Shown here: in pieces, positions 49,901-55,900 of the stretch | Numbering within the stretch: position 1 is the stretch's first letter | Layout: every line of letters begins with the position of its first letter | Assembly: GCF_053078305.1 (NCBI RefSeq) | Contig: NZ_CP166879.1 | DNA: 64,000 nucleotides | Reading direction: 5' to 3' (one strand) | Position numbers: made by a program

Positions 49901-52900
49901 GCCACGGTTTTCCAGCTCAATGCCAATAGAGGTGTCGTTAAGGCGCGTTGCCCCGCGCCAGGCGCTAATCCCCGCATGCCAGGCCAGTTCTTGTTCCGGC
50001 ACCAATTGCCAGATGCGCGGTTTACCGTTGTATCGCGGTGGCACCGCAGGGACCAGATAATGCGAGCTGACCTGCTTATCGGTCAGTGTCGCCAGCGAGC
50101 TATCAAAATCATCTGCGGTGTAGTGGATCACCAGCACTTTAATGCGCGGATACGCCGCCTGCGCCTGGCGTCGGGTATCAAGCTGGTATCCCTCTTTCTC
50201 GACAATGCCTTTTTCGCCTGCACACCCTGCCAGTAACAGAGCGGCAGCGACCAGCCAGAAGACTCTTCTCATCGACGCGTTTTCACCGCCGTACCGCTGA
50301 CGCTAACCATCAGCATACTGCCGTTTTGCCCGACCGTTTCGTAGTCGATATCAATACCAACTACGGCATCGGCCCCCAGCGCCCGCGCCTGGGAGCCTAA
50401 TTCCTCAAAGGCGATCTCCCGTGCTTTACGCAGTTCTTTTTCATACGCACCGGAACGTCCGCCAACGATATCGCGGATACCGGCAAAGAAATCACGGAAA
50501 ATATTGGCACCTAAAATCGCTTCGCCGGTCACCACACCGCAATATTCAACGATGGTCTGGCCTTCCAGAGTAGGGGTTGTAGAAAATTGCATGATCGATC
50601 TCCTTGTTTGTTAAGCCTTCGATCTCTAAAGCATTATCGGACTGATATGCCATGTTGGAAAGAAGGTTTTGATCAGTTTAGGAAATCATCTCATTGTGTC
50701 AAAAGCAGCTACATAAGCCTGTACAATTATCTGTTTCGTAACCGGATATTGGTTTCATTATGGAGCACCGCTTACCTGTCCTATTATGTTGTGCCGGCAA
50801 CATTAATGAGTGGGAAGAGTCAACTTATATTGTAAATGATTCCTAAAGTCTTCCCCATCTTGCGCCTGAGGTATATACCGCTGGATTGCTTTTTGGTCCG
50901 CCGCCGCAAAACAAGAAAGTAATAAGATCTCAATGCTTTTGTCATTAATATAAGCGAAGATCATTCTTGCAAATTCGTATATAAACGCCCGATCCTGAGC
51001 GCTTAATAGTTTAATACAATATTTATTTTTAAGAGAATAAAGTATTTCAAGAAAAGCATCCGCAGCAACCTTCACGTTATTCCCGGCGTTCATATTATAT
51101 ATATCTCTTGCACAGATAGAGTACAGAGAGAGTAAACAGCCATACAAATAATCATTTATTAACTCTTTTGTCCATTTTACTGGCAACCATGGTTTTATCT
51201 TGACACCATGCATACTACAGTCATGAAAAAGACATTTGCTGAAATTAACTCTTATCATATCAACATTAAAAAAATGACAGTTAATAAATTTTAAAGAATG
51301 AGTATTTACGTTGTTAATTTTAACAGATCTAAACGAAATATTTTTGAATACATTATTTACTATATTGCTATTTGTTATTTTAACATCACCTAAACTGCCG
51401 TTTTCAAAACAACATTTTTTCAATATGCTTTCATTCACAACAGTGTGTGATAAATAGAGATTACTTATGTTTTGCTTTATTAATGCCACGTCATTAAAAT
51501 GACTATATTTAATAAAGCAACCATCATTGAGTAGTGTTTTAAGATTGATTAAATTAGTTGCATCTTCACGTACCATCGTGGCAACAGGAACAGGCAATGA
51601 CATGAAAACTTCTTCATTCACCATCAAGTGAATCATGCATTGCGTTCCCTTTGTCATATCCACACTTACGCTACAAATATCGTTGTAATGCGAAGAGTGC
51701 ATTTCAGGAAACAGATTAAACACGGTATCTTGAAAGGCACTAAATCGTGTTAATAAATCCTGATAATGAACAGGTTTTGTTTCAAAATTATCATCAGCAA
51801 ATCCAAGCACTATTGCATGCTCTACATCTAACGCAGTTTCAAATGACTCTTCTTCTGTAAAATCATTATTTAAAACCTCACCTGACGTATTATCACTGTC
51901 ATAAAAAGTGCTCATCAATGCGATATTGTTTGTTACAGCGTCTTTTGCAATATTCTCATTAATTGCATATCGCCTGCTATAATCATAAAAATGAAGAAAC
52001 GCATCCTTTATAAAGGATATATATTGCTCTTTGTTAAAGTCAATACGACTGTATAATTTTTCAAAAATCACATTCGCAATCTTACTACCCATAGTATGCC
52101 TGTATAATAATGGGTGCGATTCAATCGTAAAATGCTTGTCTAATTGATGTTGTAATTTATTCTCATAGTCCAGTGGGAAAAGAAACTGTTGTCTTTCAAG
52201 TTTTCCATTCGATACATTACGTATTCCAATAGAGATTATTTCATTACCCGCTTTTATTTCAACTTCGTTATCTTCTGATTTACCCAGATATTTTTTAACA
52301 TCAGTCTCGAAAGCATTGCTAAAAAATGTATTAAATTGATAATTCGCTGATGGAATATTTTCCGCGAGCAACACATCATTTTTTATGAGATCACTGTCAG
52401 CATTTATTGCTAATATCAGATGCAAGTAGATGGTATCCCATGTAGACAACTCACCCTTACGACTGGAATTTAATATCGCGAAAAATTCCCTCAGTGAATC
52501 GAGGAAATTATCACTTTGATTCAATTGTGTGCATGGAAATGATGACGCTTGATCAGATATATTGTTTATCATATTAAAAATCACCCAAGAAAAACGATAA
52601 TCCACCGAACTCCTCGCGCTTTATTATTGTAAAAGCACAACACCTTTTATACTCATATTAATTAACGAAACACTGAAACAACTTGATTTATTCTTCGCTC
52701 AAATTCACTTGTTCAAAAAGATTATATTTTATACCCACAACTGTAGCATAAATAATATTATCAAAAGTCAAAGCTGGGACTATCAAATTTCGCTCATTTT
52801 CAAAAATACAACGTAATTTTGGCAATCATCTTAATAGCAGGATCTCTTATCGCATGTGAAAAATTTGTAATGATTAGACAATAACCGCGTTCATTTATCA

Positions 52901-55900
52901 CGCGTTATAAATGTGAAACTGGCTTCTTGCAGATGCTCTTAACCTCTACAGGAGGATTTATACCACCATTTCAGAACTATCATATTTACCTTAAATGATC
53001 ATTTCAGCCATATAACACGCTCAACCTCACAAATGGTTTACACTGTCTATTGTTTGGGTAATTTAAGTAAGTCAGCTACGAGCAACCTTGAGTGGGTAGC
53101 CAGCAATGGACTCAAACCCAATCAGGTGTTCAGATTGTTTCAGAATTGTATTAAAAACAATGTATTAAATAATCTGATAGCGTTTGGTCGTAGTGTGACG
53201 CAGACAGCAAGCTAATAAGGAAATGATTATGCGCTACCGTTCACTATCTCTACTTATTCCATGTGCACTGCTGCTGAGTGCCTGTACCACCGTCACGCCA
53301 GCTTATAAAGATAACGGTCCCCGCACCGGTTCCTGTGTCCAGGGGGGGCCTGACAGCGTGGCCCAACAATTCTATGACTACCGCATTCAACATCGCAGCA
53401 ATGACATTACCGCCCTGCGCCCCTATTTGAGTGACAAACTGGCAACCCTACTTAGCGATGCCAGCCGCGATAATAGTCATCGTGAATTGTTAAGCAGCGA
53501 TCCGTTCTCCAGTCGAACCACCTTGCCAGACAGCGCCCACGTTGCCAGTGCATCGACTATCCCGAATCGTGATGCCCGTAACATTCCATTGCGCGTGGAT
53601 CTCAAGCAGGGTGACCAGGGCTGGCAGGATGAAGTGTTAATGATTCAGGAAGGCCAGTGTTGGGTGATCGACGATGTGCGCTACTTAGGCGGTAGCGTTC
53701 ATGCCACGGCGGGTACGCTCCGTCAGTCCATCGAGAATCGCTAACGCCTTGATCAACCAATAAACCCCGTAAATTGTCCGGCATTTCGTGAGGAATGCCG
53801 ACATTTATGCTCGCCGACCACCGCCCCCGTTATTTTGTGCTATGTTTATTGAATAATGCGCTTTACTTTTAACTTTTAAAGCAGAAATATTGCATAATTA
53901 TTCTGTCAAAGGTACTATCTTCGACCTCAATAGCTATCAGACTGCCAGTATACGAGTGTCAATGAGTATTCAATTAAACGGCATTAATTGCTTCTACGGC
54001 GCGCATCAGGCGCTGTTCGATATCACGCTGGATTGCCCACAGGGCGAAACGCTGGTGTTACTTGGCCCCAGCGGCGCGGGTAAAAGCTCGCTGCTGCGTG
54101 TACTCAATCTGCTTGAGATGCCGCGCTCCGGTACGCTCAACATTGCAGGCAACCATTTCGATTTCACCAAAACACCCTCAGACAAAGCGATTCGCGATTT
54201 GCGTCGTAACGTTGGCATGGTGTTTCAGCAATACAACCTGTGGCCGCATCTGACCGTGCAGCAAAACCTGATTGAAGCGCCCTGCCGTGTACTGGGGTTG
54301 AGTAAAGATCAGGCGCTGGCCCGTGCAGAAAAACTGCTGGAACGTCTGCGTCTCAAACCTTATAGCGATCGTTACCCGCTGCATCTTTCTGGTGGTCAGC
54401 AGCAGCGTGTTGCTATTGCCCGTGCGTTAATGATGGAACCGCAGGTACTGCTGTTTGATGAACCGACCGCCGCACTGGACCCGGAAATTACGGCACAAAT
54501 CGTCAGCATCATTCGTGAGCTGGCAGAAACGAATATTACCCAGGTGATCGTCACCCACGAAGTTGAAGTGGCGCGTAAAACCGCCAGCCGAGTGGTGTAT
54601 ATGGAAAACGGTCATATCGTAGAACAAGGCGACGCGAGCTGCTTTACCGAGCCGCAAACCGAAGCATTTAAAAACTATCTCTCTCACTAAGATTCGGGAT
54701 AACAACAATGAAAAAAGTTCTGATTGCCGCGTTAATTGCAGGTTTTAGTCTTTCCGCCACAGCTGCCGAAACCATTCGTTTTGCTACCGAAGCCTCCTAT
54801 CCTCCGTTTGAATCGATTGATGCAAACAACCAGATCGTTGGTTTTGACGTCGACCTGGCACAGGCGCTGTGTAAAGAGATTGATGCGACCTGTACTTTCT
54901 CTAACCAGGCATTTGACAGCCTGATCCCAAGCCTGAAATTCCGTCGCGTGGAAGCGGTGATGGCCGGGATGGATATCACCCCAGAACGTGAAAAGCAGGT
55001 GCTGTTTACCACCCCGTACTATGACAACTCAGCCCTGTTTGTGGGTCAGCAAGGCAAATACACCAGTGTTGATCAGCTGAAAGGCAAAAAAGTCGGCGTA
55101 CAGAACGGGACGACACACCAGAAATTCATTATGGATAAGCACCCGGAAATCACTACCGTTCCGTATGACAGCTACCAGAACGCAAAACTGGATCTGCAAA
55201 ACGGGCGTATCGACGGCGTCTTCGGTGACACCGCAGTGGTCACTGAGTGGCTGAAAGATAACCCGAAACTGGCGGCGGTGGGCGACAAAGTGACCGATAA
55301 AGATTACTTCGGCACTGGCCTCGGCATCGCGGTACGTCAGGGCAACACTGAACTGCAGCAGAAACTCAACACTGCGCTGGAAAAAGTGAAGAAAGATGGC
55401 ACTTACGAAACCATCTACAACAAATGGTTCCAGAAGTAATTCCTGATGAATGAATTTTTTCCTTTAGCAAGCGCCGCCGGGATGACCGTCGGCCTTGCCG
55501 TTTGTGCATTGATTGTCGGGCTGGCGCTGGCGATGTTCTTTGCGGTATGGGAGTCGGCAAAATGGCGTCCTGTCGCGTGGGCAGGTTCAGCGCTGGTAAC
55601 CATTCTGCGTGGCCTGCCAGAAATTCTGGTGGTGCTGTTTATCTATTTTGGTTCCTCGCAGCTGCTGCTGACGCTTTCGGATGGCTTCACTATCAATCTT
55701 GGGTTCGTGCAGATCCCGGTGCAGATGGACATCGAGAACTTCGACGTTAGCCCGTTCCTTTGTGGTGTCATCGCTCTGTCGCTGCTGTATGCCGCCTATG
55801 CCTCGCAAACGCTGCGCGGCGCGCTGAAAGCGGTGCCGGTGGGCCAGTGGGAATCTGGTCAGGCGCTGGGGCTGTCGAAATCGGCTATCTTTTTCCGTCT

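Follow-up and report, generated by a model that had tools for sequence, protein, structure and literature searches.

An orphan pentapeptide-repeat protein under purifying selection, encoded by an AT-rich islet between ybjQ and ybjP of Escherichia coli

Does the AT-rich gene that lies between the core genes ybjQ and ybjP in some lineages of Escherichia coli encode a type III secretion effector, a protein of another kind, or nothing that functions at present? The question is raised by a stretch of 64,000 nucleotides from contig NZ_CP166879.1 (NCBI RefSeq assembly GCF_053078305.1; the whole stretch is called the window below), in which ybjQ and ybjP are separated by an AT-rich islet holding a single long open reading frame (ORF) with pentapeptide repeats. 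The islet gene is real and is held under purifying selection. Its product is most likely a binding protein whose function needs neither LEE (the enterocyte effacement locus) nor the E. coli type III secretion system 2 (ETT2), a reading to which we assign a probability of roughly 0.5.

The ORF occupies positions 50803..52605 of the minus strand and encodes 600 amino acids when read from a GTG codon, as had been described in a sequence-only reading of the window. A start at ATG 52572, giving a protein of 589 amino acids (MINNISDQ...), is likelier on sequence grounds, because conservation with a divergent allele in the genome GCA_036681175.1 begins at MINN and because one RefSeq record uses this ATG (589-residue annotation in strain MB53). 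The GTG is preceded 4 nt upstream by AGGAG, and both starts occur in databases. The ratio of non-synonymous to synonymous substitution rates (dN/dS, Nei–Gojobori method) is 0.14–0.27 among E. coli alleles and 0.23 when they are compared with the allele in GCA_036681175.1, which is 73% identical; the ratio lies below 0.3 in each of the three domains of the protein.

Most copies are flagged by the Prokaryotic Genome Annotation Pipeline (PGAP) as a pseudogene, 'incomplete; missing C-terminus', with an annotation that covers codons 1–413 only (window 51367–52605, minus strand). The ORF proved intact, at 588–589 amino acids, in ten of ten flagged or sampled genomes; since it continues intact past codon 413, the pseudogene label is an annotation artefact. 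In strain A16 (from an otter in Mexico), which is 99.7–99.97% identical to the window over 50 kb and 100% identical over the islet, the PGAP feature stops at the position equal to window 51367, which is the site of the frameshift in O157:H7 Sakai. That truncated features stop exactly at this frameshift suggests that a truncated O157 protein serves as the PGAP reference. As most intact copies are labelled pseudogenes, many pan-genome, effector-prediction and association studies that start from proteomes do not include the protein. The gene is already catalogued but uncharacterised, under the database names 'pentapeptide repeat-containing protein' and, in some entries, 'Putative type III effector protein (Pentapeptide repeat protein)'.

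Megablast with the ORF interior placed the islet gene in 1108 of 5426 complete E. coli genomes, in every case chromosomally, whereas the islet flanks were found in 5424 of the 5426. The gene is thus present in about a fifth of complete genomes, and K-12-like genomes are without the islet; the expectation that most E. coli would lack it at this position was borne out. The exact 600-residue sequence occurs on 124 public contigs, and the protein cluster at 90% identity has 6177 members, including proteins of Shigella sonnei and S. flexneri, with intact copies throughout S. sonnei. In E. coli O157:H7 Sakai the islet stands at the same site and the gene is split into ECs_0949 (413 amino acids) and ECs_0950 (96 amino acids), owing to a 7-bp tandem duplication at codon 401 that shifts the reading frame. 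This Sakai-type O157:H7 allele is carried on at least 1000 public contigs, and an unsplit allele is present in other O157 strains. In a transcriptome of Sakai with TiO2 nanoparticles and a lytic phage, ECs_0950, the downstream piece of the split gene, is among the up-regulated genes of unknown function, with a fold change that is ambiguous as printed (PMC11301168); the literature search returned no functional paper on ECs0949 or ECs0950. Further independent inactivations comprise an insertion of the insertion sequence (IS) IS2, an internal deletion and, in GCA_036681175.1, interruption by an IS3-family element. When GTDB was scanned with one genome for each species, the sole locus returned lay on a 2972-bp contig binned as Collinsella (JAIJJM010000403.1, from a 'Collinsella sp.' metagenome-assembled genome), with a frameshifted copy 96% identical to the E. 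coli gene. The contig is almost certainly a binning contaminant, and no GTDB representative of another species carries the gene.

The islet protein is composed of three parts (Table 1; residue numbers are those of the 589-residue form, in which 341–460 equals 352–471 of the 600-residue form). The N-terminal domain (N-domain) is acidic, with a net charge of −25 and mixed helix and strand, and its first 30 residues are rich in Ser, Asn and Gln (Ser/Thr/Asn/Gln/Pro make up 47%, versus 27% of the whole protein). The central region carries a hydrophobic residue in register in each of its pentads, has a net charge of +7, and belongs to the pentapeptide-repeat family (PF13599/PF00805; Pfam Pentapeptide_4 match with an E-value of 2e-4). 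Its periodicity score at lag 5 is 34, which was equalled in 0 of 10000 shuffles; other lags score 14–19, except the harmonic lag 10 with 31. A hydrophobic residue at every fifth position had been noticed for more than 15 repeats at residues ~355–470, and the 24 pentads at 352–471 in the same numbering confirm and extend that observation. The region is modelled as a right-handed quadrilateral β-helix.

The full-length AlphaFold2 (AF2) model has a mean predicted local distance difference test score (pLDDT) of 44, with a low-confidence N-domain for which it is unusable. A model of residues 330–589 (pLDDT of 64.7) has six helices after the β-helix, and the structure searches used this C-terminal-half model only. 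In fold comparison the model scored 14.0 with SV2A, 13.4 with MfpA, 13.0 with SV2C (root mean square deviation of 1.4 Å over 80 residues), 12.2 with SopA (190 residues aligned, the longest alignment), 11.8 with HalA and 11.1 with NleL (171 residues aligned). Foldseek agrees with the β-helix comparison, at low TM-scores. In these comparisons the repeat region folds like known pentapeptide β-helices. The protein has no transmembrane segment (maximum Kyte–Doolittle 19-residue mean of 1.26), no Sec signal was found, and HExxH, Fic, Walker A, CaaX, WxxxE, lipobox and LFNEF motifs were all absent in a motif scan.

Table 1 Features of the ybjQ–ybjP islet, in window coordinates
Feature	Coordinates	Strand	Basis or remark
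AT-rich islet, ~2.56 kb	50651..53210	.	Homology breakpoints, GC content
Protein-coding gene, 589 amino acids + stop	50803..52572	−	Likelier start ATG 52572; alternative start GTG 52605 gives 600 amino acids
N-terminal orphan domain, residues 1–340	51553..52572	−	No family match
Pentapeptide-repeat region, residues 341–460	51193..51552	−	24 pentads, ~6 predicted coils
C-terminal orphan helical domain, residues 461–589	50806..51192	−	AF2 model; no family match
Post-repeat motif PVKWTKELINDYL (EspX1 equivalent: PGRWTTQLVNKHL)	51145..51183	−	Smith–Waterman alignment, shuffles
Codons 400–402 (TNS), site of the Sakai 7-bp tandem duplication	51367..51375	−	Sakai sequence, tblastn frame change
AT-rich non-coding upstream region, 34% GC	52573..53210	.	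Composition

A HMMER scan of 1.84 billion representative proteins returned one full-length Escherichia/Shigella cluster and its fragments, and all other matches were confined to residues 357–465, within the repeats. Pfam, NCBIfam and PDB sequences yielded no match to the N-domain (residues 1–340), also when it was searched as a profile, and no family match was found for the C-terminal domain (C-domain; residues 461–589). Both domains were also without a match in PADLOC, of which no family matches the protein, and in PHROGs, of which three families with unknown function match the repeats only. As judged from sequence comparison, the N- and C-domains are orphans. The earlier statement that these regions match nothing recognisable held in Pfam, NCBIfam, PDB and the 1.84 billion representatives, and no homology to a housekeeping family was found.

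Among characterized pentapeptide-repeat proteins, SopA of Salmonella and NleL (EspX7) of enterohaemorrhagic E. coli possess a quadrilateral β-helix followed by helices, as does the model of the islet protein. However, SopA and NleL continue after the helix with ~400 residues in two catalytic lobes, whereas the islet protein has only 129 residues after the repeats. No sequence match to SopA or NleL extends outside the repeats, the Foldseek TM-score is ~0.32, and assignment to the HECT-like E3 ligases was rejected, the space after the repeats being too short for the ligase lobes. The repeat domains of NleL and SopA bind substrates (PMC12675278). Assignment to PipB/PipB2 was rejected as well, on the absence of LFNEF and on the internal rather than C-terminal position of the repeats; PipB2 sequences were not aligned directly. 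The DNA-mimicking proteins Qnr, MfpA and AlbG consist of ~200 residues, nearly all of them repeats, with acidic surfaces. In the islet protein, by contrast, repeats cover 120 of 589 residues (20%) and are basic, and the NCBIfam Qnr model scored 9.9 bits against a cut-off of 240; it was not classed with the Qnr/MfpA DNA mimics. The NCBIfam HalA model matched residues 416–468, in the repeats only, with an E-value of 2.5e-5 and 23.6 bits against a cut-off of 250. With this sub-cut-off score, no membrane channel domain, no halB neighbour and no PADLOC match, the protein was not classed as a Hailong HalA.

EspX1 (ECs_0025) appears, from sequence comparison, to be the closest counterpart: both are AT-rich, Escherichia-restricted, 'type III effector-like' pentapeptide-repeat proteins of the E. 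coli backbone. Both genes are AT-rich and stand alone in an islet of the backbone, and each protein has an orphan N-terminal region, a short pentapeptide block in the C-terminal half and a helical tail. EspX1 differs in its locus, which adjoins rpsT, and in its length of 473 residues versus 589. The pairwise match between the two proteins (E-value of 0.008, the best among the EspX proteins tested) covers the repeats and the segment right after them, where both carry P-x-K/R-W-T-x-x-L-I/V-N-x-x-L. The two forms of this motif (Table 1) give a Smith–Waterman score of 43, compared with 25.2 ± 4.2 for shuffles, of which 1 in 2000 reaches 43. The motif is invariant in the islet protein family, and its core P, R, W, T, Q, N, K, H and L are invariant in the EspX1 family. 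EspX1 models are also among the best non-self matches in the AlphaFold Database (AFDB), with an E-value of 1e-4. In the literature searched, EspX1 is named only in virulence-gene lists and no functional study of it was found; the comparison therefore transfers no function to the islet protein.

EspX2, EspX4 and EspX5 of Sakai show nothing beyond chance against the islet protein (BLASTP or pairwise comparison, shuffles); EspX3, EspX6 and EspX7 were not compared directly. EspX2 is likewise an accessory gene, absent from K-12 (PMC2323221). Its locus (ECs_0876) lies at rhlE–dinG rather than ybjQ/ybjP, the best BLASTP E-value is 0.87 and shuffles were negative, so that identity with EspX2 was rejected. 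The resemblance to EspX and PipB2 effectors that had been proposed from the sequence is thus weakly supported through EspX1, and not for EspX2, EspX4, EspX5 or the LFNEF motif of PipB2. EspX1, EspX2, EspX4 and EspX5 of Sakai are themselves scarcely similar to one another, with matches only between EspX2 and EspX4 (E-value of 5e-9, C-terminal) and between EspX4 and EspX5 (E-value of 4e-4, in the repeats). The EspX 'family' is accordingly a label, not a homology group.

A check of the strain for a type III secretion system, made through the near-identical strain A16, was unfavourable to the idea of a secreted effector. LEE escN was not found in A16. Its ETT2 locus (NZ_CP028758.1, 3885285–3911037) is present in a decayed state: IS5 interrupts the gene for the secretin (EscC/EivG-type), sctQ and eivF carry frameshifts, and the EivJ-type gene is split. 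The islet gene is intact despite the absence of LEE and the broken ETT2. No chaperone or secretion genes lie near the islet.

Co-occurrence was counted by inclusion–exclusion on megablast results across the 5426 complete genomes. LEE escN is present in 31% of carriers of the islet gene and 8% of non-carriers (odds ratio of 5.0), and the ETT2 ATPase gene eivC in 82.5% and 9.0%, respectively (odds ratio of 47). Among LEE-negative genomes only, eivC is found in 74.6% of carriers and 9.8% of non-carriers (odds ratio of 27), and in the LEE-positive stratum the ETT2 ATPase gene occurs in all 343 carriers. Carriers without LEE make up 69%, and 194 carriers have neither escN nor eivC. The operon of the sorbose phosphotransferase system (PTS), an unrelated control, is present in 98% of carriers and 41% of non-carriers, and its odds ratio of 70 exceeds the value of 47. 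Because an unrelated operon associates at least as strongly, lineage structure can explain the ETT2 association, which was rejected as evidence. The Jaccard index with the islet is 0.61 for the ETT2 ATPase gene versus 0.38 for the sorbose control. This higher concordance is a lead only; a functional link could survive phylogenetic correction.

The reading that we favour is of one functional gene encoding a soluble cytoplasmic protein of three parts, with an acidic N-domain, a basic, rigid β-helix and a helical C-domain. The protein would be soluble because it has neither a transmembrane segment nor a lipobox. The β-helix would offer another macromolecule a surface on which to dock, as in SopA, NleL and SV2, and would be capped by the P-x-K/R-W-T-x-x-L-I/V-N segment and the helices that follow, and the N-domain may hold the activity of the protein. 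Function independent of LEE and ETT2 is proposed because the gene is intact in a strain without a working injectisome. H-NS-type silencing, to judge from AT composition alone, probably keeps expression low; the scan for high-affinity H-NS motifs, which located a single islet site and showed no enrichment of the motif in the window, is uninformative. Several points weigh against this reading. The structural model is only moderately confident for residues 330–589 and less so for the whole protein. The likeness to EspX1 extends over a short segment and is, in sequence terms, statistically marginal: hhalign of the two proteins gives an E-value of 0.049 with a probability of only 1%, and their N-domains show no similarity (118 of 1000 shuffles). 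The inactivations in several lineages, by 7-bp duplication, IS2, IS3 and internal deletion, fit a dispensable or conditionally useful gene. Finally, dN/dS averages over a long history and is silent on present-day function after a recent loss of secretion systems.

Three other explanations were weighed. The protein may be a genuine type III secretion substrate that leaves the cell via LEE, ETT2 or Shigella Mxi–Spa, with its polar N-terminus as the signal and its β-helix binding a host target; we consider this unlikely. The composition of the first 30 residues and the missing Sec signal would suit it, as would the fact that the longest fold alignments are with the effectors SopA and NleL, but the neighbourhood offers no chaperone or secretion gene. 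The weak link to EspX1 speaks for it, as does the name 'Putative type III effector protein' that already stands in some database entries; against it, EspX1 is named only in virulence-gene lists in the literature searched. The ETT2 ATPase gene is indeed far commoner among carriers than non-carriers and universal among LEE-positive carriers; against this stand the stronger association of the sorbose operon, the many carriers that lack LEE or both ATPase genes, and strain A16 with its intact islet gene. Intact copies across S. sonnei favour secretion, whereas Sakai-type O157:H7, in which LEE works, carries the frameshifted allele on its many public contigs. The present evidence neither supports nor excludes secretion, and the effector role is putative.

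A role within the bacterial cell, with nucleic acid as the target or in defence against phages, is very unlikely, whether as a DNA mimic of the Qnr and MfpA kind or as a HalA-like sensor or effector. The pentapeptide domain of Hailong HalA binds oligo-dA, and the HalA model does match the islet protein, but at a score far below cut-off and in the repeats only. AFDB matches include pentapeptide proteins with potassium-channel domains; the islet protein has no transmembrane or channel domain, no HalB-like neighbour and no PADLOC match. Retention of the gene without an injectisome would agree with such a role, and so would the three PHROG families that match the repeats, yet no phage or plasmid relatives were found, and the 24 basic pentads are unlike the acidic, all-repeat gyrase mimics. 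Just as improbable is the reading implied by the 'pseudogene' label in RefSeq, in which the gene is a decaying relic that no longer functions. Its absence from ~80% of genomes, the repeated inactivations and the PGAP flag on most copies point that way, but the flag is contradicted by the intact ORF in all ten genomes, and the dN/dS of each domain cannot be reconciled with neutral evolution over the long term. A bolder variant, distinctly doubtful though less remote than the two just described, would see in the N-domain a new fold with an activity mounted on the docking module, and in the islet protein and EspX1 an Escherichia-specific family of ETT2 substrates or intrabacterial proteins.

How the gene came to lie between ybjQ and ybjP, its neighbours, was approached by comparison with the K-12-like genome NBRC 3301, in which the ybjQ–ybjP spacer is 125 bp long. 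The match to this spacer ends at window 50650 and restarts at 53211, and the islet (~2.56 kb) stands in place of ~49 bp of it. The GC content is 28–36% over 50800–53200 versus 53–58% in both flanks, with means of 33.6% in the islet (50651–53210) and 52.9% in the remaining window, and the GC content at third codon positions is 0.295 in the islet gene versus 0.61 in neighbouring amiD. The AT-rich stretch 5′ of the GTG start measures 617 bp (52606–53222). The sequence-only reading had taken the spacer in the K-12 order to be short and described ~2.6 kb of AT-rich DNA with ~600 bp of AT-rich upstream sequence, all of which agrees with these measurements. The upstream region is presumed to be a promoter or regulatory region used divergently with ybjP; it contains 17 promoter-like hexamers compared with 13.4 ± 3.7 in shuffles, which is no excess. 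An Rfam scan of the islet gave nothing above threshold, and no terminators were found at the islet.

The islet is without integrase, IS, tRNA or terminal or boundary repeats (window annotation and repeat search). No phage relatives of the gene were found and there are no true plasmid copies, three 'plasmid' matches being mislabelled chromosome-size records of 0.7–4.9 Mb. In the absence of an integrase or transposase, a tRNA or attachment site, direct repeats and phage or plasmid copies, the islet was not classed as a mobile genomic island. In the divergent Escherichia genome GCA_036681175.1 (JAQMUR010000001.1), the same ybjP/ybjQ site is occupied by the IS3-interrupted allele, which is 71–73% identical in amino acids and has a synonymous divergence (dS) of 0.63, compared with 94% DNA identity for the core genes on either side. 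Because the same site is occupied in this genome and mobile-element features are lacking, we read the region as an old presence/absence polymorphism of certain Escherichia and Shigella lineages, with the islet lost repeatedly, rather than as a recent insertion. This fits at least as well as the insertion originally proposed, which is not established. Of that first interpretation, the accessory AT-rich islet, the pentapeptide protein and its orphan flanks stand, and the likeness to EspX and PipB2 is weakly supported.

If functional, the islet gene is one of many unstudied orphan genes, each confined to some lineages, by which E. coli lineages differ. About a fifth of sequenced E. coli carry it, O157:H7 among them (where it is often frameshifted), and so does S. 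sonnei. The 'effector' labels on pentapeptide-repeat orphans such as the islet protein and EspX1 derive from resemblance alone, yet genome surveys routinely tally these genes as virulence genes. The most useful by-products of the analysis are the annotation artefact and this caution over effector labels.

Some smaller observations concern the edges of the islet and the rest of the window. The core flanks at 50400–50650 and 53211–53700, at the ybjQ and ybjP edges, are only 88–95% identical between carriers and non-carriers (megablast), as expected if two haplotypes of old standing had seldom recombined across the indel, and the signal-peptide region of ybjP differs between the two groups. Within the AT-rich upstream region, a 60-codon ORF with an ATG start (53033–53215, plus strand) stops 8 bp short of the ybjP ORF. 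A further small accessory block, which we take to be absent from K-12, lies between artJ and rlmC (window ~57,900–61,080); its genes specify a sulfatase and the PTS components IIB and IIC, and O157 Sakai has the block too, as ECs_0940–0942.

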